Source: an uncultured bacterium (GTDB lineage Bacteria > UBA8481). Taken from it: a stretch of DNA of 64,000 bases. The stretch lies in contig CAZCME010000013.1 of the NCBI GenBank assembly GCA_964499705.1, positions 45,217 through 109,216 on the forward strand, given 5' to 3'. The position numbers and the translations under genes are program-made. This document shows positions 6,754 to 45,796 of this stretch, in pieces. Positions within the stretch are counted from its first letter, which is position 1. Each line of letters opens with the position of its first letter. The notes beneath the pieces were generated by a model that made no database searches, was not told where the DNA came from, and worked only from the letters and a program-made list of their open reading frames with translations.

Positions 6754-6963
6754 TTGTTAGATTTTTTACCGGGAGGCTATTTTTACAGGCATATGGAACA
6801 ACATGGTGAGAATCGGATGAGCGAAGATGAGAAAACCATCCTCAAGTTCGACTCCGGAGCGGGAGGATTCGAGTACATGATCATCATCCTCGTCGTTCTC
6901 GCCGTTTTCATGCTCCTGGCGGGCGGTTACTTCCTCTGGACGTGGCAGCCGCCGGGCACCTGA
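6754..6963 (+). CDS. Hypothetical small membrane protein
   Basis: ORF 6754..6963 with a single hydrophobic helix (MIIILVVLAVFMLLAGGYFLW); weak support. Confidence 0.3.
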   Translation: MLDFLPGGYFYRHMEQHGENRMSEDEKTILKFDSGAGGFEYMIIILVVLAVFMLLAGGYFLWTWQPPGT

Positions 6964-7359
6964 TCATTCATCGTACGAAACCGCGGTGTGATGGCTGTAT
7001 TCGCCTATATGCGGCGGAAGCGACCAGCCCCGGCATCGCGCGTGACAACGATAGCAGACGGCAAGCTGGGGGACACGGCGGTAGAGCAACCAGTCGATGA
7101 GAGCCGCGACGGGAAGAGAGAGGCCGTATGTGGACGGCACGAGACCGATCGCAACGAGCATGATGGCGCATCCCAAGGCGGTGTTGAAATCGCGCTGGAG
7201 GTAGAAGTGCGGGCAATCGCAGAGCGGGCAATGTTCGAATGAGAATTCCGCATCGGGCAGGCTGAATGTTTTTCCGCACGCGGAACATTTCAAATTGCCG
7301 TCCGTGACGCAGATCGATGCCTTGCAGCCCGGACAATGACCGTCGATCGAACGGCTCAA
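6964..7359 (-). CDS. Zinc-ribbon membrane protein, hypothetical
   Basis: ORF with CPGC...CSAC and CPLCDC...CYRCHARC cysteine pairs flanking a hydrophobic segment; overlaps the stop of the upstream membrane protein gene by 4 nt (7356..7359). Confidence 0.5.
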   Translation of the reverse strand: MSRSIDGHCPGCKASICVTDGNLKCSACGKTFSLPDAEFSFEHCPLCDCPHFYLQRDFNTALGCAIMLVAIGLVPSTYGLSLPVAALIDWLLYRRVPQLAVCYRCHARCRGWSLPPHIGEYSHHTAVSYDE

Positions 7360-8129
7360 AGCGCGAGCCCATACCGGATGAGATAGTACTTGTAGGCCAG
7401 CTCACCCATCAGCATCGAAATGAGAACGACGTACAGAAGACCCGTCGCGGACTGCGTTGATTCGATCTTCACGGTGCCGAGGACGAAGAAGCCGACGATG
7501 AGCGGGAAGACCGTGCCGAAGATGAGCGCAATCCAGAGCAGGAATCCTTCGTAGGTCTGGAGATATTCCGACATCGGGATGAGCATGTCGCCCTCGAACA
7601 CGACCGGCCTGAACGCAAAGGCGTAAGCGTCCCAGATGAGACGCAGAACGAGGAGCGCGACGAGAACTCTCGCTGCATTTCGGAGAGGCCGGATCGAGAG
7701 CTTCTGGACGCTCAGATACCAGTGCCCGAGAACGACGGCATAAATGGAAGCGCAGAGAAGGAGCCCGCCGAGAACGGATGCCAGGAAGGATCCCGCATCC
7801 ATGGGTCTCACGTGACGTTGAAACGCCACGAGAACAAGAAGTCCCGCCGTCGCCGGAACAATAAAGAGAGAATCGCGGATGATCTCCCTCTTCCACGAAA
7901 CAGCCGTCACGGCCAGTGCAAGGACCATCCAAATGCCGATGAGAATCTTTGTTTCCTCCGGAATGCCCTGGAACCAGAGAATGAGGAGGACCACTCCCGC
8001 CGGAACATAGGCCATGCCGATGTTGAACCGGTAGAAGTCGGGATCGACAACATCCTTCGTGTGGCAGAAGAAGAAGAGCGGGTAGAGCGCTCCGATCAGG
8101 ATGAAGTCGAGATAGAGAATGGAGGACAT
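7356..8129 (-). CDS. Polytopic membrane protein, hypothetical (last gene of the bc-complex operon)
   Basis: 257-aa ORF with multiple hydrophobic helices, directly downstream of the multihaem cytochrome c gene on the same strand. Confidence 0.55.
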   Translation of the reverse strand: MSSILYLDFILIGALYPLFFFCHTKDVVDPDFYRFNIGMAYVPAGVVLLILWFQGIPEETKILIGIWMVLALAVTAVSWKREIIRDSLFIVPATAGLLVLVAFQRHVRPMDAGSFLASVLGGLLLCASIYAVVLGHWYLSVQKLSIRPLRNAARVLVALLVLRLIWDAYAFAFRPVVFEGDMLIPMSEYLQTYEGFLLWIALIFGTVFPLIVGFFVLGTVKIESTQSATGLLYVVLISMLMGELAYKYYLIRYGLAL

Positions 8130-8163
8130 AGGAGAAGTATGAAGTATGAAATACTTCGTACTT

Positions 8164-11031
8164 CTATTGCGCCGTCACAAGGTAATCGCGAAGTGCCTGG
8201 AGCTGCTTTTCCTCGTCCGGCGTTCCGCCGTCGAGGTTGGCGGGCATCCGGACTCCGGGATAGAAGGCGGCCGGGTTGCGGATCCATTTAACGATCCAGT
8301 CCGCGCGGAGCCTCTTTCCGGCGAGCGCCAGGTCGGGAGCCCATGTGTTGGATCCGCTGAGCGGCGTCTTCGCGCCGATGATGTGGCACGTAGTCGCGCA
8401 TCCCAGGTCGTCGACCAGTTGTCGGCCTGCCGCGACTTCCGCGGAAGAGGGATCGGGATGGCGAAGTTCGCTGAGGATCATGGTCGGCGTTTCCACGGCG
8501 GCGAAATAGTAGACGAGCGTGTTCAGCTCCGCGTCCCTGAATCCGAACGACGGCATGCGTACATTCAGCCACGGCCGCGGTCTCGCCATCGCCGGATCAC
8601 GGATGAAGTCGTAGAGCCACTCCGCCCGGATCTTCTGGCCGGTGCTGATGAGATTCGGAGGATTGACGTTCGTGAGCCACGGAGCATCGAAAACATCCGA
8701 TTCGACGCCTTCGTATTTCATCACGGCTTCGCGTATAACGGGCCGGATCGAGCCGCCGCGTCCTTCGATGATATGGCAACCCTGGCAGTTGTATTCGCGG
8801 ACGAGCCGCTGGCCCTGTTCCACGACGAGGTTCTTCGGGGTTCTCGGGAACATCTTCTCCGCCTTCACGCTGGGCTTCACGAATCCGACGATGGCCGTCA
8901 CGACCGCGTCGATCTCGGTGTCGGAGAGATCGAAGTTCGGCATCCGGAGCTTATCCAGCGGCGCAAGAACCCGCTCACGGTCGAAGATCCTCGGCTCCTT
9001 CAGCTTCTGCGTGAACCAGTCGTAGTTGTTATGGCCGATGTCATGAATGTAGCCGAAATCGAGCTTGGAAACCGGCTTGGAACCTTCCTCCGTCAATTCG
9101 GTGCCGATCGGCATCGCGGTGTCGAATCCGGGGATCTCGTGGCAGCCGAAGCAGCCATACGTGCCTATCAGTTTCCGGCCGGTGAACTCGAGCTTCTGCG
9201 CCTGAGAACTCTTTTCGATCGTCTCTTTCGCCTGGGCGTTCGTCATGTTCTTCGCGAGAAACTCCAGCATGATTCCATTCAGGATCTTCTCATCGAGGGG
9301 AGGAATCTCCGTGTTGAACTCCTCGTTCCTGTTCTGCATCAGGTACGCCGTGACATCAGCCGCTTCCTGATCCGTCAGTCTCAGATCGGGCATCCTCGTA
9401 TTGGGCGAGAACGCATGAGGATTCCTGATCCAGTTGTAGACCCAGTCGGCGGAGGTCTTCGTCGCCAGTCCCGTCAGCTCCGGCCCCTGCATTCTCCGTA
9501 TCATGTCCGACGTCGTGTTCGTCCTTATGAAGGCCGATCGATCCTTGTCAAAGTGCGTCTTGTCTTCCTGCAGGTGGCATCCGTAGCAGCCAGTCGTCGC
9601 GAGGATCTTTTCGCCGCGGGCCGGATCGCCGGGCATCGCCATCGAAGCCATCGCATGCGTATCGCTGAACTGGAAGAGGTAGGCGACCATCGCGTGGATT
9701 TCCTGGCGGGATCGAGCCTTCTGTTCGTCGGAGCTGTTGTTCGACTGATCGAAGAACCGCGGCATCCACGTGTTATGGCGGAAGCTCTTCGGGTTCAGGA
9801 TCCACCGGTACGTCCAATCCTTGGACGTCTTCGCGGCGATCTTCCTCAGCGACGGGCCCGGCTTCGACCGGCCCAGGTAGCGGGAGATGTTATGGCAGCC
9901 GTAGCATCCGGCCTTCTCGATGACCTGGAGGCCCAGGTTCAGTTTCTCCGCGCCGCGCAGTTCCGTGGCGTGCGAATGACAGTTCAGGCATCCCGCTTCC
10001 GTGTACTTCGTCGGAAGCATCGGAGTCTCCCAATAGTGATAGAGATACCAGCCGTATTTCGCCTTCCATTCCTCTTCCTGCTCATGTGACGACGGCCTGT
10101 GAATCGACATCAGGAAGCTCGTGCCGCGTCCGCGGCCCAGGTGGCAGCTCGCGCAGCCGAACTCCTCGACCGGATGCGGGGAGGCGCTCGAAAGAAACAG
10201 ATCCAGCTTCGGATGCGTCTTGAAGGGCTGGGCATCTTCCGCGAATTCGGGCCTCATGAGGCCCTGGTGGCAGGTCTGGCACCGGTCGACGCTCGGGACG
10301 CGGAGAAAGTTCAGGTTGTCGGTGACGTCAGGAACGACGACTTGTTCGATCTTGTAGGACGGGTTGAGGAAATCGAGAAGCGGCATGTCGCGAATGGCGT
10401 TGCCGATCTTCGCGAGGAGGCTCATGTTCTCCGGATCCATGTTCGCCAGTTTCCTCTGGAGAACGGCGGCCTTCCTGGCCAGCGCGGCGGCGGAATCGTT
10501 CAGAGCGCGGATGGCGTCCTGCTTCTTCATCATCTCGGCGGAGGCGCTCTCCAGGTCCGTCGCGGCCTTCTCGTTCTTCAGGCGCAATGCTTCCATCTCG
10601 CCGAAGAGCTTGTCCATCTCCGCCTTCTGCTTCTGCCCCTCATGCCCGTGGCCGCGTTGGTTCTCGTAGCGATATTTCGCGGCTTCGTACTCCGATTTGC
10701 GGAACTGGTAATCCTGGTTCGCCTTGTCGCTGACGGCCTTCAATTCCGTGATGGTTTTCGCAAACTCCTGGCTCACCATCTTCCGGATTTCCAGGTCCGC
10801 CTCCACCTGAGCGACCGCGTCGACCGCGTTCTGCAGGTCGGCGCTGGAGAGGACATCGCGCGTCTTGGAGATATCGAGCTTCCTGAATTCGCGCTGAAAG
10901 TGTTTCCATTCGCGGTCGTAGTCGTCCACGAACATCCAGATGAACGTGGCGAACATGATGATGCTCGATATCGCGAAGACCCGGTTCACCCGGGACATCA
11001 CGTAATATCTCTGCTCGCCCTTCTCCGCCAC
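8164..11031 (-). CDS. Multihaem c-type cytochrome (about 8 haem-binding sites), bc-complex associated
   Basis: 955-aa ORF with CxxCH motifs CQTCH, CASCH, CLNCH, CYGCH (twice), CFGCH, CQGCH and one CxxxCH (CATTCH); N-terminal TM segment followed by a coiled-coil-like region. Confidence 0.8.
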   Translation of the reverse strand: MAEKGEQRYYVMSRVNRVFAISSIIMFATFIWMFVDDYDREWKHFQREFRKLDISKTRDVLSSADLQNAVDAVAQVEADLEIRKMVSQEFAKTITELKAVSDKANQDYQFRKSEYEAAKYRYENQRGHGHEGQKQKAEMDKLFGEMEALRLKNEKAATDLESASAEMMKKQDAIRALNDSAAALARKAAVLQRKLANMDPENMSLLAKIGNAIRDMPLLDFLNPSYKIEQVVVPDVTDNLNFLRVPSVDRCQTCHQGLMRPEFAEDAQPFKTHPKLDLFLSSASPHPVEEFGCASCHLGRGRGTSFLMSIHRPSSHEQEEEWKAKYGWYLYHYWETPMLPTKYTEAGCLNCHSHATELRGAEKLNLGLQVIEKAGCYGCHNISRYLGRSKPGPSLRKIAAKTSKDWTYRWILNPKSFRHNTWMPRFFDQSNNSSDEQKARSRQEIHAMVAYLFQFSDTHAMASMAMPGDPARGEKILATTGCYGCHLQEDKTHFDKDRSAFIRTNTTSDMIRRMQGPELTGLATKTSADWVYNWIRNPHAFSPNTRMPDLRLTDQEAADVTAYLMQNRNEEFNTEIPPLDEKILNGIMLEFLAKNMTNAQAKETIEKSSQAQKLEFTGRKLIGTYGCFGCHEIPGFDTAMPIGTELTEEGSKPVSKLDFGYIHDIGHNNYDWFTQKLKEPRIFDRERVLAPLDKLRMPNFDLSDTEIDAVVTAIVGFVKPSVKAEKMFPRTPKNLVVEQGQRLVREYNCQGCHIIEGRGGSIRPVIREAVMKYEGVESDVFDAPWLTNVNPPNLISTGQKIRAEWLYDFIRDPAMARPRPWLNVRMPSFGFRDAELNTLVYYFAAVETPTMILSELRHPDPSSAEVAAGRQLVDDLGCATTCHIIGAKTPLSGSNTWAPDLALAGKRLRADWIVKWIRNPAAFYPGVRMPANLDGGTPDEEKQLQALRDYLVTAQ

Positions 11032-34629: not shown

Positions 34630-34657
34630 GGGGACATTCTCCAACATTCCAACATTG
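34630..34657 (-). repeat. 28-bp REP-like repeat, copy 3
   Basis: Exact GGGGACATTCTCCAACATTCCAACATTG; on the minus strand it ends 12 nt upstream of the asnB ATG. Confidence 0.8.
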
Positions 34658-34826: not shown

Positions 34827-35849
34827 CTAAACGACTAACTCCTGCTGCGTCAATGTTGGAATGTTGGAGAATGTCCCCCTGATTGCTTCGGCAAGGGCTC
34901 CTTTGCGCCTGTCTTTTCGCATGCGAGAAACGATCATCGAATAATAACCATTCGGGTGGCGATCGCCGTCCTCATGCTGGATACGGTCGTAGGTCCAGCG
35001 GGCCAGCTCATGCGCAATGTAGATCGTGAGTTCGCGGTGCATCGCCTCGATCGACGACCATGCCTGGCGGCGCATTTCGGATGTGGCCATGACGAACCGG
35101 TCGGCCATCTGCTGAAGATCGCTCCAGGACCACGACACGGCGTCGCGGTCCATCGTGCGTCGCTTTCTGGTTTCTTCGAACCGCTGACGGCGTTCCGTCT
35201 GGAGTTCGATACGCTTTCGAAATAGATGCGAGCTCATGAAACGGCCGTTATGGCCCTCGCGAAACAGTGTTTCGTTGGATTCTGCGTTGAGTTCATTGAA
35301 CCATCTGTCCAATACGCCCAACTGTTTAACATGATCGAAGGAGGAGATGTTCTTTCCGAAGAGTTGCTCGGCGAGCAGATGCCGGTCGACGCGATTTCTC
35401 TGGGTTCCCATGCCCAGCATTTCCCGCGCACTGCACCAAGGATAAAGAAGCGGATCGCGTACGAAACCGGCACGGACTGGATTGAGGATGATGTAGGCGA
35501 CGACGGTTTCAAAGTAGGACTCCGTCTCGATGACGAGCGACTTCGATCTGCCCTGGAAGAGGTGGCCGGTCCGGTCGTGGCGTCGGTTGAGTTCCTGAGA
35601 GGCGCGCGTCAAAAATCGCCGCAGGAATTCCGAAATGTCGCCGCCGGGCGTTCGAAGGCAGAAATGAAAATGATTCGGCATGAGACAATAGGCATACGTG
35701 ACGACGCGAAACATCTTTGCCGACTCGAAATAGAGATCGAGAAATCGACGGTAATCGGACTCGTGCTGGAAGAACGGGTGCTTGTCGACGAAGCGATTGA
35801 GGACGTGGTAGACGGCGTCCTTGTAGGCGATGCGTGGACCTCTGGACAT
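34827..35849 (-). CDS. IS200-like Y1 (HUH) transposase, REP-associated tyrosine transposase (RAYT)-like
   Basis: 340-aa ORF; HUH motif CLMPNHFHFCL and tyrosine motif VAYIILNPVRAGFV align by eye with the PEHMHCIW and YIYINPVK regions of E. coli RayT; N-terminal AVYHVLNR. C-terminal codons read through a repeat copy. Confidence 0.75.
   Translation of the reverse strand: MSRGPRIAYKDAVYHVLNRFVDKHPFFQHESDYRRFLDLYFESAKMFRVVTYAYCLMPNHFHFCLRTPGGDISEFLRRFLTRASQELNRRHDRTGHLFQGRSKSLVIETESYFETVVAYIILNPVRAGFVRDPLLYPWCSAREMLGMGTQRNRVDRHLLAEQLFGKNISSFDHVKQLGVLDRWFNELNAESNETLFREGHNGRFMSSHLFRKRIELQTERRQRFEETRKRRTMDRDAVSWSWSDLQQMADRFVMATSEMRRQAWSSIEAMHRELTIYIAHELARWTYDRIQHEDGDRHPNGYYSMIVSRMRKDRRKGALAEAIRGTFSNIPTLTQQELVV
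34851..34878 (+). repeat. 28-bp REP-like repeat, copy 4
   Basis: Exact CAATGTTGGAATGTTGGAGAATGTCCCC; inverted partner of copy 3 with a 193-bp spacer; lies inside the last ~17 codons of the transposase ORF. Confidence 0.8.
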
Positions 35850-37627: not shown

Positions 37628-37655
37628 CAATGTTGGAATGTTGGAGAATGTCCCC
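37628..37655 (+). repeat. 28-bp REP-like repeat, copy 5
   Basis: Exact CAATGTTGGAATGTTGGAGAATGTCCCC ending 14 nt upstream of the STAS gene ATG. Confidence 0.8.
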
Positions 37656-39535: not shown

Positions 39536-40237
39536 TTATTCCATCAGGTTGTACTTCACGATGTGCCGGAACGCGGCGACGCCGTCTTTCCACGTGATCT
39601 TCTTGCCTTCGTCGTAAGTCCGGCCGAAGTAGGAGATCGGGATTTCGAAGATCCGGGCTCGCGCTTTCGCCACCTTGGCGGTCAGTTCGGGCTCAATGCC
39701 GAAACGGTTTTCCTTCAGGTTCAAACTCTTCAAAAGCGGCGCGCGGAACGCCTTGTAGCCGGTCTCCATGTCGGTAAGGTTGATGTTCGAGAATGCGTTC
39801 GACATGAGCGTCAGGAACATGTTACCGAGATAATGCCAGAAGTACAGGACACGGTGGGGACCTCCGAGAAAGCGCGAGCCGTACACGACGTCGGCGTCGT
39901 TGTTGAGAATGGGAGCGATGAGCGCGGCAATGTCCTTGGGATCGTATTCGAGATCGGCGTCCTGGATGACGATGATATCGCCCGACGCCAGGGCGATGCC
40001 TTCGCGAAGGGCCGCCCCTTTCCCGCGGTTGACGGGGCAGTATTTCGTCACGAGTTTCGCGACCGGATGCGCTTCCGTGTATTCGCGGATCCGGTCCGGA
40101 GTGCCGTCCTGCGACGCATCGTCGACGATGATGATCTCGGTGTCGTCCGCTCCAGTCTTGACCGCGCGGACCCGATCGAGGATCGTATGAATCGTATCGT
40201 GCTCGTTGTAAACGGGTATGACGATGGAAAGTTTCAT
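39536..40237 (-). CDS. Family 2 glycosyltransferase (Dpm1-like)
   Basis: ORF 39536..40273 trimmed to Met 40237 (MKLSIVIPVYNE...); IIVDDASQDGT and VIQDADLEYDP motifs. Confidence 0.8.
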   Translation of the reverse strand: MKLSIVIPVYNEHDTIHTILDRVRAVKTGADDTEIIIVDDASQDGTPDRIREYTEAHPVAKLVTKYCPVNRGKGAALREGIALASGDIIVIQDADLEYDPKDIAALIAPILNNDADVVYGSRFLGGPHRVLYFWHYLGNMFLTLMSNAFSNINLTDMETGYKAFRAPLLKSLNLKENRFGIEPELTAKVAKARARIFEIPISYFGRTYDEGKKITWKDGVAAFRHIVKYNLME

Positions 40238-40247
40238 GGCCATGCTC

Positions 40248-41003
40248 CTAGATCGATCCATTCGCCGGCGCAAAATGCCGGTCCGTCGCCACCCCGATGC
40301 GATGCATCGAGAAGCGTAAAAGGCGCCACAAGATGTTGAGGCCGTATTTCACGGAGCGTTGGAAATTGATCTGCGACGCTTCGTCGAAATAGCGCGTCTC
40401 GATGGGGATCTCGACGAAACGCATTCCCGCCTGGATGCCCTGCAGGATGATCTCCGTGTCGAATATGAAGTCGTCGGAATTTTCGTCCATGCGGATCGCC
40501 TCGAGATATTTCCGCGTGTACGCGCGGAACCCGGAGTGGATCTCCGTCAGGTACACGCAACACGTGATGTTGAAGATCGCGGTCAGGGCGACATTCGCGA
40601 CGAATTTCCACTTCGGCATGCCTCCCTCGTTGAAGCGGCCACCCAGCATGCGGGAACCGAACGCGGCGTCGGCGCGACCTTCCTTCAAGGGAGCCAGCAG
40701 ATCGGGGATCATGCGGGGATCATACTGGTGGTCGGGATGGACCATCACGACGATGTCGGCGCCGCGATCCAGCGCGGTCCGGTAACACGTCTTCTGATTC
40801 CCTCCATAGCCGCGGTTTCTGGGATGGACCGTCACTTCGATTCCCAGGGATCGGGCCTTCTCCACGGTCTTGTCCCGCGAAGCGTCGTCGACACAGAGCA
40901 CATGATCAAAGTGGCCCTGCGGTAGGTCGTGGTACGTGCGCTCGATCGTCTTCTCCGCGTTGTACGCGGGCATCACGATCCAGACAACCGGGTTCCTGTC
41001 CAT
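40248..41003 (-). CDS. Family 2 glycosyltransferase
   Basis: 251-aa ORF with VWIVMPAYNAEKTI, LCVDDASRD and VVMVHPDHQYDP motifs. Confidence 0.8.
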   Translation of the reverse strand: MDRNPVVWIVMPAYNAEKTIERTYHDLPQGHFDHVLCVDDASRDKTVEKARSLGIEVTVHPRNRGYGGNQKTCYRTALDRGADIVVMVHPDHQYDPRMIPDLLAPLKEGRADAAFGSRMLGGRFNEGGMPKWKFVANVALTAIFNITCCVYLTEIHSGFRAYTRKYLEAIRMDENSDDFIFDTEIILQGIQAGMRFVEIPIETRYFDEASQINFQRSVKYGLNILWRLLRFSMHRIGVATDRHFAPANGSI

Positions 41004-41012
41004 TCAGGAAAT

Positions 41013-42509
41013 CTAGCGACTCGGCGACTTCGGAGCAAGGGGGACGAGATCGGGGGGCAGGGACTTGTACACGACGAAAAGAATGCGACTGTCGAGATCG
41101 TGGGAGGCGAAGTCAATATTCCTGGCTACAAGGAGCCGTTCCCAATTTCTCGTGTTCGCGTCATCCGGCAATAAGACCGCGGGGCGCTCCGCACGCCGCA
41201 ACTGTTCCGTCCACACAGGACGTCGGTCACTGGAATTGGGAGGCATTGTCGCGGACACGGGGATCCGCCCCAGCAGGCGAAATCCGATCGGATAACCGAG
41301 ATCGTAGTCCGCATACAACCCGTCCGCGCCCGCCCGTAGGATGATGTCCGCGGCGCGGCCGACAACGGGATGGGGGGCGAACGCGGCAATCATGCGGACA
41401 TCCGCATACAACGAGACCACGACGAGCGGAATCAGAACGCAGCGCGCGCCGTACTTGCCGAAAGCCTGAACGGCGACGACGAGCGCGATCGCTACCGTGG
41501 TCCACTGGCGATCGCGCGTCAGATTACCCGCAAGATTGAATAGAAGCAGCGCGACGAGGAAGGAAAGAACAAGGATGCCCCATTCGCTCCCCTGCCTGTG
41601 AAGGAGAACGCCGCCCCAGACAGCCAGTCCCAGAAGGATAACGGCTCCAGCGAGACCTCCGCAGGGCGAGAACAGATTCGACAGCCCCAGCATCGTCTCC
41701 ATGATCCACTGAGGCACCTGGCCGACGCGGCCCATCATCGCGTCCCACAGATTCGACTGGGCCGTCGCGTCCAGCGATCGCCCTCCCAAGCGCCGGAATG
41801 TGGCGCCCGGAGCGATGGAGAGATTATATATCCAGAACGGCAGGCTCCCCGCCATGAAGCCCGCGCACATCGACAAGCAACCCTTCACGTGGAGGGAGCG
41901 CTTCCAGAGGAGAAGCACAAGACCTGAAATAAGAAAGGGCAGGCCAAGCCAGAGGATCATGAAAGACGCTCCCATTAGAAAGCCCGCGGCCAGGAAATCG
42001 CGCGAGCGAAGGGAGCGGGAAGCCGCGATGCACATGATCCAGATGGCGAAACCCAGGCAATACGTCTCGGGATAGCCTCCGTGGGCTGTTGTCGAGAGCA
42101 AGAACATGGTGGGAAGCGAAGCCGCCATCGCCATGGCGGCCAGGTAGGAATTGAAAGTATCGAACGCGCGACGCAGTGACAAGAACACAAGGGGAGCCAG
42201 CACGGCGTCATAGAGGAGCGTAGGCAGACGAAAAGAGAAGGGGCTCGGTCCATACCAGGCCATGAACGGTATGCTCAGGTAGGAAATGAGCGCCGACGCA
42301 TAATGCGCGCCCCAGCAATAGAGGGGATATTCCTCCCCTCGCGCGATCGCGAATGCCATGAGACCGAATACGCTTTCGTCTCCGGACAATTCGCTGCGGG
42401 AAATGAGCGGCAGGCGGAGTAGAATCGCGAACGCTCCGGTCACCAGGGCGGGAAACATCAGATTGGAGGATGGATCACGCGCGGTTTCGGGAGAAGGAGA
42501 AGCGCTCAC
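41013..42509 (-). CDS. Polytopic membrane glycosyltransferase-like protein (ArnT/PMT-like)
   Basis: 498-aa ORF, about 12 hydrophobic helices, located with the two GT2 genes; family assignment by architecture only. Confidence 0.5.
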   Translation of the reverse strand: MSASPSPETARDPSSNLMFPALVTGAFAILLRLPLISRSELSGDESVFGLMAFAIARGEEYPLYCWGAHYASALISYLSIPFMAWYGPSPFSFRLPTLLYDAVLAPLVFLSLRRAFDTFNSYLAAMAMAASLPTMFLLSTTAHGGYPETYCLGFAIWIMCIAASRSLRSRDFLAAGFLMGASFMILWLGLPFLISGLVLLLWKRSLHVKGCLSMCAGFMAGSLPFWIYNLSIAPGATFRRLGGRSLDATAQSNLWDAMMGRVGQVPQWIMETMLGLSNLFSPCGGLAGAVILLGLAVWGGVLLHRQGSEWGILVLSFLVALLLFNLAGNLTRDRQWTTVAIALVVAVQAFGKYGARCVLIPLVVVSLYADVRMIAAFAPHPVVGRAADIILRAGADGLYADYDLGYPIGFRLLGRIPVSATMPPNSSDRRPVWTEQLRRAERPAVLLPDDANTRNWERLLVARNIDFASHDLDSRILFVVYKSLPPDLVPLAPKSPSR

Positions 42510-42590
42510 GCGCCGATAATACAGTGTCAGGCCGCCTCATTGCCATATTCAATGTGGTCATGTGACGGCCCGGCATCGTAGAATGCCGGC

Positions 42591-44138
42591 ATGAAATGGA
42601 ACAGCTACGATTTCGTTCTCTCCGCTGACGCCCAGTGGAACGGCGCGAGCCAGGATTATATCCGCGACCTCCGGGAGTATCGCCGCGCCGATCTGAAGAG
42701 CGAATACCAGACGATCGTCTCTCCGGAACTGCATCGACTGTTGCCTCGACGGGCCGGACGAACGTTCGAGTCGGCCGACCAGAGCACATGCGTCCGGGTC
42801 AGGGCGATCGACCAGCGGATCGGATTCCCGGCGGAGTTCTTCCAGTGCATGCTCCAGAAGCCCCAGCACTACGTCGACTACCACAGCCGGCATCCGGCAT
42901 TCATGAGCCTCGTGCGGAACAATCACGCGAAGCTGAACGAAATCCTGGACGCGGGATTCCGCGCCTATTACGCGCGCGGCGTCTCTCCCGATCATGCGAT
43001 CTACGACGAGATCGACCGGCTCTTCCGCAGTGAAGACGCGGAAATGCGCGGGATGCTGAAGGGATACCTCACGCAGAAGCCGCAGCGCGCGATCTTCCTC
43101 ATCGACGTGGAGTCGGCACCGGCATCGCTGCCGTGGCTGGAGCCCGTCTACCAGACGATCAAGCACCACCTGCTGAACTGGGGGATCGACCACATCGCGG
43201 TCCTGACCGGAAAAGGTTATCACTTTGTTACGCAGGTTCCGCTGTATGCGGAACGCGGCATCCACGACGGCAAGGCGCATCTGAACTATGCAATGCTGAA
43301 CCTCATGGCGCGCGGCGGTCCCGTCAAACCCGAGACGCTCGACGGGCTCGTGTCCGTCCGCTGGGGCAGCCGTAAGCAGTCTCCGACGCCCCTCCTGTCG
43401 CAACGCTCCTACCAGGGCATGTGGAAGCTGCAGCAGTTTTTTCTCGTCAACATCGCCGACGACATCCGGCGCCAGCTCTCTCGCGCGAGGATGAATCCGT
43501 GGGTCAACTTCAGCGACACGGAGAAGGAGACCGTCATCCTGGACACGACGAGCATGCTGCGGCAGGTGGAGATGGGCGTCTTCGGCAGCGTCGGAAGCCT
43601 GTACAACAAGAAGAGAAATCCGCCGAAGGTCCGGATCATCCGCAGCCGGAACGGGCACGAATTCTTCCGGAACGACCTGAACTGGATGCTCTCCACGCGA
43701 ACCGATCTCGGCGCCGTGAAGCACCACCTCGTCCACACCGGTGGCCGCATCCCCGACGGCTCGCGTGGCATCGAGAACATGATCCACGGGTATGATTCCA
43801 GCCGGATGAAACGCGAACTGCACGACCCCTGCGACCGACCGCTCTCGCCGGAATGGATCTCCGAGATCTTTCAGTCGAACTACCGCATCATCTGGCAGCG
43901 GTGCCCGGAGATCCTCTCCCACATCGAGCACGCCCAGCCGAATTTCCTGAATCCGTCATGTCTCTCTTATGTCTATCGCCGCCTGGCCGCGCGCGGATTC
44001 TCCGTGCCGGAGATGATGACGATCACGAAGGCGGTGTACTGCGATCCGGCCAAGAACGTTCAGATCGACGGCAAGTATTCAAAGGACGAATGGTGCCGGT
44101 GGCCCGAGCTGCTGCTGGGAGAGTGGTTCAAGGGGTAG
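42591..44138 (+). CDS. Hypothetical protein, 515 aa, no recognisable domain
   Basis: Long ORF with genome-typical codon usage and non-repetitive composition; several His-rich segments (WGIDHIAVLTGKGYHF, HHLVHTGGRIPDG) but no motif I can assign. Confidence 0.55.
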   Translation: MKWNSYDFVLSADAQWNGASQDYIRDLREYRRADLKSEYQTIVSPELHRLLPRRAGRTFESADQSTCVRVRAIDQRIGFPAEFFQCMLQKPQHYVDYHSRHPAFMSLVRNNHAKLNEILDAGFRAYYARGVSPDHAIYDEIDRLFRSEDAEMRGMLKGYLTQKPQRAIFLIDVESAPASLPWLEPVYQTIKHHLLNWGIDHIAVLTGKGYHFVTQVPLYAERGIHDGKAHLNYAMLNLMARGGPVKPETLDGLVSVRWGSRKQSPTPLLSQRSYQGMWKLQQFFLVNIADDIRRQLSRARMNPWVNFSDTEKETVILDTTSMLRQVEMGVFGSVGSLYNKKRNPPKVRIIRSRNGHEFFRNDLNWMLSTRTDLGAVKHHLVHTGGRIPDGSRGIENMIHGYDSSRMKRELHDPCDRPLSPEWISEIFQSNYRIIWQRCPEILSHIEHAQPNFLNPSCLSYVYRRLAARGFSVPEMMTITKAVYCDPAKNVQIDGKYSKDEWCRWPELLLGEWFKG

Positions 44139-45037
44139 TGCTCACCACGATCACGTTCAGCTCCCGCGACCGGGAGACGGTTCAGGACCTGGACGAACGC
44201 TTCCATCGATCCGATGCCTGCGACCCCTGGGTCAAATCCTTCTTTATCCACGCTTATCGCGATCTCTTCGACGACATCAGGAGCGTCGCGCCGGCGGTCG
44301 CCGTGCCGTACAACTGCGGAACGCTCATCGCCGCTCCCAACGGCAAGCTCGTCGGCATCGACCTGACGCTTCTGGAGAATTATTACGGCGGTCGCGACTG
44401 GAATGTGCCGGGCTGGCTGTACGATCTCATCTCCGACCGTCTCGACGTCCTCATCGTCTCGCACGGGCACTGGGATCATTGCTGGGTGGAACTCATCTGG
44501 AGCATGATCCGGAAGGGCAAGACCGTGATCGTGCCGGAGGGAATCCGCACCTGCGCGCCCAAGTTCCTGCCGCAGGGGTGTCGCGGTGTAGCGGACGACG
44601 CGCGCTTCTGGTGGAACGGGCTCCATTTCGCCTTTCACCACAACAGGCACGTGTACGACGGCGGACGCGGCATGAATGTCCTGACGACGCGCATCTGGGA
44701 CGGCCGGAACGTCTACCTGCACACATCTGATGCGGACCCCACCGACGAGGAGCGATTCCGCTGGCACGATCCTCATCCTGTCGATGTGCTCCTCTTCAAG
44801 TTCGGCGGCGTCTCCCCCTTCGTCTCCGACTACGACGCCCTGGTCCGGACCGTGGACCTGATCTCCCCCCGAAAGCTCCTGCTGCCCATTCACCTGAACG
44901 AATTCGGCCATCGGGGCACGGGAGCCGCTCTGCCGTATGGGCACACGTATGACGTCTTCGAGAGGTATCGCGCGGAGGGTCGGCTCGGGTCGAGGCGGTA
45001 TGCCGTCCTCTTCGGGAACAGGATAGTCCGTCTGTAG
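44138..45037 (+). CDS. MBL-fold metallo-hydrolase-like protein
   Basis: Reading frame of ORF 43853..45037; contains VLIVSHGHWDHCW (HxHxDH) before the first internal ATG, so the start must be the GTG at 44138 overlapping the upstream stop (AAGGGG just 5'). Start uncertain. Confidence 0.5.
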   Translation: MLTTITFSSRDRETVQDLDERFHRSDACDPWVKSFFIHAYRDLFDDIRSVAPAVAVPYNCGTLIAAPNGKLVGIDLTLLENYYGGRDWNVPGWLYDLISDRLDVLIVSHGHWDHCWVELIWSMIRKGKTVIVPEGIRTCAPKFLPQGCRGVADDARFWWNGLHFAFHHNRHVYDGGRGMNVLTTRIWDGRNVYLHTSDADPTDEERFRWHDPHPVDVLLFKFGGVSPFVSDYDALVRTVDLISPRKLLLPIHLNEFGHRGTGAALPYGHTYDVFERYRAEGRLGSRRYAVLFGNRIVRL

Positions 45038-45040
45038 GGA

Positions 45041-45069
45041 GGGGAAATTCTATGTTGGAGAATGTCCCC
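45041..45069 (+). repeat. Degenerate hairpin copy of the 28-bp repeat family, copy 6
   Basis: GGGGAAATTCT-ATGTTGG-AGAATGTCCCC: the right half matches the family consensus (ATGTTGGAGAATGTCCCC), the left arm is its near-complement. Confidence 0.6.
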
Positions 45070-45283
45070 TTGACGCTGCGGCTTTCTCTTCGATATAGTT
45101 TCTCCTGAAGGATCCCTGATCCTTCCAAGCAGAGGCACCCGCCTCTCACCTCGCAGCCTGCCGCTGTTTCCGGCGCGGACTTGCGCGACCGAGGTTTTCG
45201 TGTTTTGCCTGTGACGACGTGTGTCCAGGGGGCGGGTATCCAAGGATCGGCCGGACAGCGCAGTTGAACAAGGAGACCGCGGA

Positions 45284-45796
45284 ATCAGCAAAGGAAAGCT
45301 CAGAATCAACGAGGACATCAACGTTCGCGAAGTGAGGCTGATCGGGGAAAATTCCGAGCAGCTCGGAATCGTCAGCAAGGAAGAGGCTCTGGCAAAGGCT
45401 CGCGCCGCCGGCCTCGATCTCTGCGAAATCGCAGCGAATGCGAAGCCGCCCGTCTGCAAGCTCATGGATTTCGGGAAATACAAGTACGAAATGCAGAAGA
45501 AGCTGAAGGAAGCGCGGAAGAAGCAGAAGGTGATCCACGTCAAGGAAGTCAAGCTCTCCCCCAAGATCAACGAACACGACTACCTCAACAAGTACAACGC
45601 GGTGGAACGGTTCATATCCGAGGGAGACAAGGTGAAGGTGACGATGGTATTTCGAGGCCGCGAGGGAGCACATCCCGAGTTCGGCGCGAAGATCATCAAC
45701 AGGCTGGTCGAACAGATCAAGACAACGGCTCAGATCGACCGCATGCCCAAGCAGGAAGGCAACCAACTCTCGGTGATCCTCTCCCCGATGCCCTAG
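45284..45796 (+). CDS. infC: Translation initiation factor IF-3, probable non-AUG (AUC) start
   Basis: ORF 45221..45796 (GTG in track) is IF-3-like (KLRINEDINVREVRLIGENSEQLGIV...PPVCKLMDFGKYKYE...). A strong AAGGAG at 45270..45275 sits 8 nt before an in-frame ATC at 45284; no Shine-Dalgarno precedes the GTG. Confidence 0.75.
   Translation: MSKGKLRINEDINVREVRLIGENSEQLGIVSKEEALAKARAAGLDLCEIAANAKPPVCKLMDFGKYKYEMQKKLKEARKKQKVIHVKEVKLSPKINEHDYLNKYNAVERFISEGDKVKVTMVFRGREGAHPEFGAKIINRLVEQIKTTAQIDRMPKQEGNQLSVILSPMP

Follow-up and report, generated by a model that had tools for sequence, protein, structure and literature searches.

The stretch of DNA analysed here (64,000 nucleotides, referred to as the window) contains two neighbouring genes on the plus strand, termed A and B. 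Gene A (42591..44138) starts with an ATG, ends with the stop codon TAG at 44136-44138 and encodes a 515-aa protein of the AEP (primase-polymerase-like) superfamily (MEK8022910.1 / AAB229_03795), annotated at NCBI as 'hypothetical protein'. Gene B (44138..45037) encodes a 299-aa metallo-beta-lactamase (MBL)-fold hydrolase (MEK8022909.1 / AAB229_03790). Both open reading frames, proposed as genes in a preliminary description of this DNA, are real, and the N-terminus of A (MKWN...) is common to the protein and 18 full-length homologues. A consensus scan placed a promoter-like site (TGGTCA-18-TAGAAT, a consensus match only) at 42555..42584 on the plus strand, whose -10 element ends 6 nt 5' of the ATG of A and which is overlapped by the palindrome CCGGCAT-N6-ATGCCGG (42570-42589). 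The mRNA of A may be leaderless. The divergent upstream neighbour of A is a PMT_2 (GT-C) glycosyltransferase gene (41013..42509, minus strand), beyond which lie two GT2 genes (40248-41003 and 39536-40273, minus strand); these Pfam assignments, given as context only, bear out the glycosyltransferase cluster previously noted beside the pair. Downstream of B, the degenerate repeat copy reported earlier is real; the 17-nt intergenic repeat found there, TGTTGGAGAATGTCCCC (45053..45069, plus strand), is one of six exact copies in the window (0.02 expected). Directly 3' of this copy and upstream of infC, the consensus scan identified the promoter-like sequence TTGACG-18-TATAGT (45070-45099), and the repeat and this site mark the end of the A-B unit. 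No terminator-like sites were found in the scanned interval 42300-45300 around A and B, and the one Rfam match in the window, a tRNA, lay outside the A-B locus.

The stop codon of A and the start codon of B share a single base (TAGTG, 44136..44140, plus strand). The start of B was assigned to the GTG at 44138-44140 by alignment with 20 homologues, in most of which the initial Met (MLTTITF...) falls on this codon; three relatives with 73-80% identity carry an ATG at exactly this position. The SHGHWDH motif occupies residues 108-114 of the 299-aa product (nt 44459-44479) and precedes the first internal Met (residue 123), so that translation of B must begin at a non-ATG codon. Both the order of motif and ATG and the GTG start overlapping the upstream stop codon had been put forward in the preliminary description, and the N-termini of the homologues agree with the latter. 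The NCBI call for B in this MAG uses GTG 44123, five codons upstream (304 aa); with either codon, the start of B overlaps the end of A. The reading frame is coding and conserved in relatives; a non-coding frame there had been named in the preliminary description as an outcome that would speak against its view. Since B is translated from a GTG overlapping the stop codon of A, the two genes are co-transcribed and, judging from the sequence, probably translationally coupled in this genome.

Searches of Pfam, NCBIfam, PADLOC and PHROGs with A and its relatives gave no match; in Pfam, A lacked a match at E <= 0.1 and 47 relatives lacked one at E <= 1. A sequence search of the PDB with A alone or with a 47-sequence profile (A3) returned only noise, and even this profile provided no sequence-level link to any AEP family. 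Literature searches retrieved no description of the family. The earlier statement that the 515-aa protein has no assignable motif is therefore correct for the sequence databases, whereas it does not hold at the level of the fold, where an AEP core with three catalytic motifs is recognized. The predicted structure of A comprises the alpha/beta module and the RRM-like module of the AEP catalytic core, with the NHEJ/BER-type enzymes Prim-PolC and LigD-PolDom as nearest folds. Motif I, the acidic D-x-D/D-x-E signature on a beta-strand, is represented by D172-V-E174 (FLIDVES; 43104..43112, plus strand) at the end of a predicted strand (residues 166-176, AF2 secondary structure); it is invariant in 18 homologues, and aligned distant relatives have D in 70/70 and E/D in 69/70 cases. 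Motif II (sGxGxH) corresponds to G207-K-G-Y-H211 (43209..43223, plus strand) at the start of the predicted strand 209-217. TGKGYH211 is invariant within the A family, G209 is kept in 79/79 and H211 in 66/79 of the aligned distant relatives (N in 9/79), and hhalign aligned the motif with TPSGGH of a paralogue described below. The third catalytic acid (motif III, hD) is D318 (VILDTTS; 43542..43544, plus strand) at the end of the predicted strand 314-318, unchanged throughout A1 and the 47-sequence alignment A3 and present as D in 72/72 aligned distant relatives. The three motifs, near-universal in 84 distant relatives, are located on the predicted beta-strands expected for AEPs. A C-terminal all-helical domain (approximately residues 360-515; 43668..44135, plus strand), delimited by AF2 secondary structure and conservation, aligns with the C-terminal domain of the paralogue, and its residues R370, P388, G393, Y401, S404 and P455 are kept superfamily-wide. 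The AEP assignment thus draws on predicted structure and motif logic in place of a sequence-level link, and A is, by its modelled fold, a so far unclassified and very rare member of the AEP superfamily with conserved catalytic residues. A confident assignment to a characterised family, named in the preliminary description as the outcome that would speak against its view, was accordingly reached at the superfamily level only.

In the proposed activity, the acidic triad of A would bind two Mn2+/Mg2+ ions and, together with the His of motif II, the incoming (d)NTP. The nucleotide would then be passed to a 3'-OH on a nucleic-acid template, with the conserved C-terminal helical domain possibly assisting in the binding of the template or initiating nucleotide. 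The closest folds, Prim-PolC (M. smegmatis, PDB 6sa0) and the LigD polymerase domain/Prim-PolD (2fao, 2iru, 5dmu), form the NHEJ/BER branch of the AEP 'proper' clade and share only 10-13% identity with A, with neither an HMM-level relationship nor membership by Pfam or PDB profile. They carry D-x-D rather than D-x-E in motif I and comprise ~300-330 aa, whereas the 515 aa of A include an additional ~160-aa N-terminal region and the ~155-aa conserved C-terminal helical domain. Unlike these enzymes, A has a paralogous AEP-like gene as its partner in other lineages. A 5'-phosphate-binding pocket and surface Loops 1-3 are features of LigD-PolDom/Prim-PolC (PMC7442782). Neither Ku nor an ATP-dependent ligase (LigD/LigC) was found among the Pfam-annotated neighbours of A, those of loci L015-L021 having been scanned in part. 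PriS, the catalytic small subunit of the archaeal/eukaryotic replicative primase (8b9d, 1v33, 1zt2), is characterized by a Zn-binding motif and the Fe-S partner PriL. A shows neither: it has no PF01896 match, lacks the conserved Zn-binding Cys/His cluster (only C438 is near-invariant), has no detected PriL-like (Fe-S) neighbour and is mainly bacterial. The absence of a Zn-finger combined with the PolDom-like core makes replicative priming less likely than a repair-type role in extension or gap filling. Against this reading of A, Ku, an ATP-dependent ligase and a helicase are not consistently found near the gene, and most of its contexts are unrelated to DNA metabolism, with the cell-envelope glycan genes described below recurring among them.

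The A family comprises 18 clusters among 5.8 billion (5.8e9) proteins, yielded 104 matches among 1.84e9 representatives in a profile search and occurs in 8 of 185,579 species genomes; gene A is found in a handful of bacterial candidate phyla and in the Methanosarcinales. A putative wider AEP-like superfamily amounts to ~100 clusters at 50% identity, distributed over candidate bacterial phyla, CPR, DPANN and Methanosarcinales. Such a patchy distribution with inter-domain transfer could be expected if A were a replication primase left behind by an integrated mobile element now in decay, and MGEs carry the majority of the bacterial AEP families described to date (PMC5862659). Compared with the MGE and defence PrimPols, a group including pRN1 ORF904, RepB', NrS-1, CAPP and PrimPol-PV1 (PMC5862659), A lacks MGE surroundings and viral relatives, has no helicase, PriCT or CRISPR genes fused to it or alongside it, and matches nothing in PADLOC or PHROGs; the SF3/DnaB-type helicase or PriCT that accompanies a PrimPol replicase in a plasmid, virus or integrated element is missing. 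No integrase, helicase, capsid or plasmid genes were present in ~16 contexts, IMG/VR contigs contained no relatives of A1, PHROGs gave no match, and a BFVD fold search with A produced no match at E < 1e-3. The GC content is ~0.60 across the A-B region with no compositional anomaly, and Hydrogenedentota retain A at 60-83% identity in differing housekeeping contexts, its neighbours in the examined loci being housekeeping genes. An origin from a decayed element is therefore highly improbable. Gene A is chromosomal and under purifying selection, and its family is chromosomal, absent from viral collections and not mobile.

B is an ordinary di-metal hydrolase with the MBL fold and belongs to the UlaG/YhfI/PhnP type, whose members are mostly phosphodiesterases and lactonases. 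Its Pfam matches to Lactamase_B_3/B_2 were weak and below the cut-off (Lactamase_B_3 at 22.0 bits, gathering cut-off 24). Among the 21 homologues found, eleven had a precomputed PF13483 match, and B homologues are annotated as 'UlaG (beta-lactamase superfamily)' by JGI. The AF2 model of B (pLDDT 90.5) was matched by Foldseek to MBL-fold hydrolases with a probability of 1.0 and TM 0.52-0.59, including UlaG, YhfI, PhnP, NAPE-PLD and TM0207. The MBL motif H109-G-H111-W-D113-H114 (44462..44479) and the further candidate ligands H171 (44648), H195 (44720), D198 (44729), H252 (44891) and H258 (44909), all on the plus strand, are invariant columns of alignment A5; B thus combines the fold with the HxHxDH motif and a complete set of downstream H, D and H ligands. 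A beta-CASP insertion domain, as in the MBL nucleases SNM1/Artemis, CPSF73 and RNase J, was not found in the AF2 model, which consists of a single compact MBL domain, and the best Foldseek matches were non-beta-CASP enzymes (IntS11 at rank 49, TM 0.44). B shares the alpha-beta/beta-alpha fold of the UlaG/YhfI/PhnP/TM0207-type hydrolases, but only 12-17% identity, and differs from them by an extra ~50-aa N-terminal helical segment; it also lacks a ula, phn or RNA-processing context. A 741-aa gene located 5' of a B homologue (L023) was considered as a relative of A and rejected; by sequence it appears to encode a multi-pass membrane protein, with no recorded Pfam match.

Linkage of the two genes was surveyed in 15 other lineages with an A homologue, of which L012 was uninformative, its contig ending just past A. 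In L010+L013, B adjoins A with a deduced spacer of ~76 nt, and in L015 it lies 2.6 kb from A, with a GH63-like glycosidase gene in between; in the remaining lineages surveyed, B was not found beside A. Adjacency or proximity was thus detected only in the window, L010+L013 and L015, the spacing among these closest relatives going from a 1-nt overlap to ~76 nt and 2.6 kb, and B homologues also occur in unrelated contexts. Of the tight coupling suggested in the preliminary description, the overlap and co-expression in this genome stand, whereas the step from the overlap to a functional pair is weak, with adjacency deduced in 1/15 other lineages. The one-base overlap is real and limited to this lineage, so that A and B do not constitute a conserved system of two genes. 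Being lineage-specific and decaying among close relatives, the adjacency of A and B is best read as local gene packing.

In 8 other lineages, the gene directly 3' of A is the ~445-aa paralogous AEP-like gene, which was aligned to A by hhalign with a probability of 98.3% (E 1.2e-14) and carries its own D-x-E, SGGH and D motifs. The identities of A and the paralogue co-vary, also across the boundary between bacteria and archaea. A tblastn search for the paralogue within the 64-kb window was negative, and the partner profile, searched against a database, retrieved no protein with the AAB229 locus prefix of this MAG, most matches being without a name. Partner matches of 45-48% identity, one cluster of which belongs to Candidatus Wallbacteria, were rejected as an unlinked partner of the clade represented by the window. 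The ~445-aa paralogue is the ancestral, co-transferred partner of A and is missing from the window. In a sister AEP-like subfamily, the gene is invariably joined to one for an EndoIV-like TIM barrel (AP_endonuc_2), either by coupling, with an overlap of 3-7 nt in 15 loci, or by fusion. The TIM-barrel partner possesses an EndoIV-like five-His ligand set, and its best PDB match is MJ1311, listed as a predicted EndoIV homologue (PMC2770678), with sugar isomerases at similar E-values. When compared with classical Nfo at the HMM level, the fusions gave only AP_endonuc_2 and a weak CbiR-like phosphodiesterase match. Given the strict coupling to a phosphoesterase-like TIM barrel in the sister subfamily, the pairing of an AEP with a phosphoesterase, and hence of A with B, may be functional.

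A and B could form a functional module of an AEP polymerase and an end-cleaning or incising metallo-phosphoesterase, comparable to LigD (POL + PE domains) or to AP endonuclease and Prim-PolC in BER. In such a module, B would remove 3'-blocks or introduce nicks into damaged DNA, and the gap would be filled by A. The stop/start overlap, which implies co-expression, the adjacency or proximity kept in the three closest lineages and the largely phosphodiesterase nature of the nearest solved folds of B (PhnP, YhfI, cAMP-bound MBL, ElaC-like, NAPE-PLD) are consistent with such a module, as are the sister subfamily with its overlapping or fused AP_endonuc_2 TIM barrel and His-rich EndoIV-like ligands, an archaeal homologue located upstream of an Lhr helicase and an SbcD/PdeM-like metallophosphoesterase, and another that adjoins an EEP-family nuclease/phosphatase. 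However, the pairing is missing from most A lineages, B has other contexts, a GH63-like glycosidase separates the genes in L015, and there is no ligase nearby. Moreover, B has no beta-CASP or other nucleic-acid-specific module, phosphoesterases are frequent chance neighbours, and the pattern was assembled post hoc. A joint function of this kind is possible, though we lean against it. We are similarly doubtful of a broader scheme, in which the members of an undescribed AEP-like superfamily would be ligase- and Ku-independent repair modules of an AEP polymerase and an interchangeable metallo-phosphoesterase (an EndoIV-like TIM barrel in operons or fusions, the MBL protein here, Metallophos with Lhr in one archaeon), the A-type branch would be a heterodimer of two catalytically intact AEP paralogues encoded by a cassette moving between bacteria and archaea, and the A-B overlap would reflect real functional coupling.

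Genes for cell-envelope glycan metabolism recur near A or B, namely in the window (PMT_2/GT2/GT2), L015 (Wzy_C and the GH63-like gene), L013 (Wzy_C, 3' of B), L004 (GT4 genes and NeuB), L016 (epimerase), L002 (PMT_2 and GT2-TPR) and the L033-39 group. If meaningful, this recurrence would point to a nucleotidyltransferase with the AEP fold that has been co-opted for a non-nucleic-acid role in the metabolism of cell-envelope glycans, such as nucleotidylating or polymerising a sugar-phosphate, with B as an accessory hydrolase; a GT-C-like membrane protein downstream in six short-subfamily loci and the scores of the TIM-barrel partner against sugar isomerases and epimerases would fit as well. To our knowledge, no AEP acts on anything except nucleic acids. 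The glycan genes are conserved in neither order nor identity, the six GT-C loci, being closely related to one another, represent roughly one observation, envelope genes are plentiful in these genomes, and the five-His set of the TIM barrel resembles EndoIV rather than sugar isomerases when compared with the nine EndoIV residues named in PMC2770678. A glycan-related role of A is thus improbable.

We consider it likely that A represents a new AEP branch, probably a repair-type polymerase, and that A and B are co-expressed in this genome, their adjacency being best read as local packing. Archaea and eukaryotes use AEPs as their primases, and bacteria use them as repair polymerases in NHEJ and BER; new AEP branches have repeatedly brought further DNA transactions to light, among them PrimPol repriming, CAPP and gap filling by Prim-PolC. 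The branch described here is invisible to every sequence library tried, is chromosomal instead of mobile, and has moved between Methanosarcinales and candidate phyla of bacteria. Its members occur as tandem, apparently active paralogues or coupled to an EndoIV-like TIM barrel. For annotation, MEK8022910.1 and MEK8022909.1, so far listed as hypothetical proteins, can now be assigned at the level of the fold, and the start codon of B can be corrected. If active, the A branch would give poorly known phyla an additional polymerase for repair or tolerance and offer a protein pair that is tractable to experiment.

Gene A occupies nt 42591-44138 of the + strand (ATG start, 515 aa) and is followed by gene B, whose + strand frame ends at 45037, within a bacterial chromosome fragment (GC content of the window ~60%), which its best database match assigns to a Candidatus Hydrogenedentota MAG. 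Both frames agreed with the preliminary description, coordinates included. The TAG stop of A (44136-44138) and a GTG in the frame of B (44138-44140) overlap as TAGTG. In the 299-aa product starting at this GTG, SHGHWDH comprises residues 108-114, ahead of the first Met at residue 123, which makes a non-ATG start unavoidable. The N-terminal Met (MLTTITF...) of 20 B homologues aligns exactly onto GTG 44138, and three relatives (73-80% identity) carry an ATG at the equivalent codon; the proposed start overlapping the stop of A was thus upheld. The NCBI annotation of the MAG places the start of B five codons earlier, at GTG 44123 (MEK8022909.1, 304 aa), which is probably a mis-call; a 315-aa variant in MGnify also begins upstream of the homologue-supported start. 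Inspection of the sequence revealed no good Shine-Dalgarno motif before GTG 44138 or GTG 44123, which fits termination-reinitiation. Judging from the overlap and the lack of a terminator-like site in the scanned region around both genes, A and B are co-transcribed in this genome.

As described previously, the pair lies between glycosyltransferase genes (PMT_2, GT2 and GT2 by Pfam; - strand, upstream of A) and a repeat copy (45053-45069), beyond which the infC-rplT-pheST region follows, as judged from its ORFs. Glycan genes recur near A homologues, as would be expected if A had a role in envelope glycan metabolism; however, these neighbours are unordered, and such a role is considered highly unlikely. 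Upstream of A (42555-42591), a -10-like TAGAAT ends 6 nt 5' of the ATG, so that the transcript may lack a leader or carry only a very short one. This element is covered by a perfect 7-bp palindrome, CCGGCAT-N6-ATGCCGG (42570-42589), which ends 1 nt before the ATG. The 17-nt repeat, TGTTGGAGAATGTCCCC, is present in the window in six exact copies (0.02 expected), located at 2201-2217 and 34630-34646 on the - strand and at 2307-2323, 34862-34878, 37639-37655 and, downstream of B, 45053-45069 on the + strand. Five of the six sit inside a longer repeat of ~46 nt (TAACTCC...CAATGTTGGAA...). All copies lie outside likely genes, with the repeat end 12-14 nt 5' of a start codon in two cases, and the repeat may serve this organism as a promoter or regulatory element.

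Searches of Pfam, NCBIfam, PADLOC, PHROGs and PDB returned no sequence match for A, and only 18 clusters of homologues, each full length and 36-100% identical, were recovered from 5.8 billion proteins. The residues invariant among them include D172-x-E174, G207-K-G-Y-H211, D309, D318 and R324. Since this pattern resembles motifs I-III (D-x-E, GxH, D) of the archaeo-eukaryotic primase-polymerase (AEP) superfamily, a structural model of A was compared with known structures. The best match was Prim-PolC (6sa0; score 14.9, 236 residues aligned), followed by the Methanocella NHEJ polymerase (12.9), LigD PolDom (2fao and 2iru; 12.5-12.7), CAPP (10.3), PriS of human, yeast, Tetrahymena, Pyrococcus and Sulfolobus (8.5-10.1) and a group comprising cyanophage S-2L PrimPol, RepB', HP0184, HSV primase and human PrimPol (5.8-7.7). 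Motif I lies on predicted strand 166-176, motif II on 209-217 and motif III on 314-318. Searching 1.84 billion representatives with a profile yielded 104 relatives, most of which have 460-490 aa and match positions 162-512 of A only. Near-universal in 84 of these relatives are D172, E/D174, G209, H211 and D318, as well as K340, R370, Y401 and S404. The N-terminal region of A (~160 aa) is particular to its family, whereas the helical domain at the C-terminus is conserved. No link to a described AEP family was found at the sequence level. Fold match, motif positions and conservation in relatives together identify A as a predicted new, catalytically intact-looking branch of the superfamily. The earlier view of A as unrecognised and without an assignable motif thus held for the sequence libraries, but not for its fold and motifs I-III.

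B gave weak matches to Lactamase_B_3 and B_2, just under the Pfam cut-off. Its homologues (n = 21, 49-100% identity) are in part labelled 'UlaG (beta-lactamase superfamily)' by JGI. The model of B (pLDDT 90.5) matched MBL-fold hydrolases (probability 1.0, TM 0.52-0.59), including T. maritima TM0207-type proteins, UlaG, a cAMP-binding MBL protein, YhfI, NAPE-PLD, PhnP and ElaC-like proteins, most of these neighbours being phosphodiesterases. The ligands HxHxDH, H171, H195, D198 and H252 are invariant, and no beta-CASP domain was detected in B, which is thus predicted to be an ordinary MBL-fold metallo-hydrolase.

Linkage of A and B was surveyed in 15 further lineages that possess an A homologue. 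In the closest relative (A 83% identical), contig L010 stops 70 nt past A, and its last 21 nt are the first 21 nt of contig L013 from the same sample, which begins 27 nt 5' of a B homologue (80% identity); A is likely followed, after ~76 nt, by B, which has an ATG start. The spacer (L010 3617-3686 / L013 1-27) contains inverted ATGAAGGATGA / TCATCCTTCAT repeats, which probably broke the assembly, the contigs meeting on the shared 21-mer. The two genes are 2.6 kb apart in L015 (73% identity), B being downstream of A on the same strand, with a gene for an 857-aa GH63/MGH1-like glycosidase with a pullulanase-associated domain (8151-10721) between them. A Wzy_C-TPR protein is encoded divergently upstream in L015, and Wzy_C also follows B in L013. 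In sample SRR22388142, A and B (both 76% identical) are on contigs with unrelated neighbours. No B homologue was found in the fetched flanks of the remaining lineages, and no A near the B homologue on a 489-kb contig. Given this series (76 nt, 2.6 kb, absent), linkage is confined to the nearest relatives of the window and decays stepwise. The previously suggested coupling therefore applies only locally, and the pair co-occurs in L010+L013 and L015, but not in the flanks of the other lineages. The adjacency gives the impression of eroding synteny and not of an operon kept by selection, and functional cooperation of A and B is regarded as doubtful.

The conserved neighbour of A is a different gene (~435-457 aa), which follows it in eight lineages (two Methanosarcinales, Riflebacteria, Muiribacteriota, Planctomycetota and three Hydrogenedentota-like), the junction ranging between an overlap of 4 nt and a gap of 179 nt. 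Such a tandem cassette, with an A-type gene of ~515-537 aa in first place, was noted at loci L002/L022, L003, L009 and L016-L021. Comparison by hhalign (98.3% probability, E 1.2e-14, 298 columns; motifs II, III and the C-terminal domain aligned) shows this partner to be distantly paralogous to A. Its own invariant residues are D78-x-E80, TPSGGH133 and D231, and the D-x-E, GxH and D motifs are intact in both gene types. The identities of A and partner co-vary between loci (68% vs 67% for Riflebacteria and 59% vs 62% for Muiribacteriota, each against Methanosarcinales), so the cassette moves as a unit, also across domains. The identity of 59-68% between Methanosarcinales and these two bacterial groups implies that the pair was exchanged between domains recently. 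No partner gene is present in the 64-kb window, and a database search, in which most matches were unnamed, did not find one for its MAG. In one Brocadiia MAG the two types are unlinked, and the partner type can also be found on its own.

When metagenomes were scanned with the shorter sister subfamily (~460-490 aa), 28 loci were recovered, 15 of which carry an AP_endonuc_2 (xylose-isomerase-like) TIM-barrel gene directly upstream, in at least four divergent lineages (loci within L026-L041; e.g. L033, 5933-6919 with 6926-8398). In most of the 15, the TIM-barrel stop overlaps the AEP-like start by 3-7 nt; in Patescibacteria both are fused, and P0179 represents a similar fusion (proteins P0057, P0071, P0179). 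The barrel keeps H109, H152, E196, D229-x-x-H232, H276, H286 and E342, a His-rich set that we take to match eight of the nine residues serving metal binding and catalysis in EndoIV. Among PDB sequences, the barrel was closest to MJ1311 (E 2.6e-4), a predicted M. jannaschii EndoIV homologue (PMC2770678). Because sugar isomerases score almost as well, the resemblance to EndoIV is no more than suggestive. In L001 (9652-12941), the archaeal A homologue P0014 is followed after 70 nt by genes for an Lhr-type helicase and for an SbcD/PdeM-like metallophosphoesterase, the classic Lhr-MPE damage-response pair, and another A homologue adjoins an EEP nuclease/phosphatase. Together, these contexts point, with weak to moderate force, to DNA repair. 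L001 also has a PolX-PHP gene, located 3.3 kb upstream.

Whereas predicted fold, motifs, motif conservation, gene arrangement and distribution are taken as established, the catalytic mechanism can be proposed by inference. A would bind two divalent metals via D172, E174 and D318 and an NTP with the help of H211, and would then initiate or lengthen a nucleic-acid chain, with the C-terminal helical domain as a candidate module for the template or initiating nucleotide. That A acts as the primase of a mobile genetic element is scarcely credible. Because a Zn-finger is absent and the core is PolDom-like, the predicted activity that we favour is synthesis of the repair type, which has been described for Prim-PolC (PMC7442782, PMC5663958). 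The finding is real and goes beyond 'an unrecognised protein': A would represent a new branch of the AEP superfamily.
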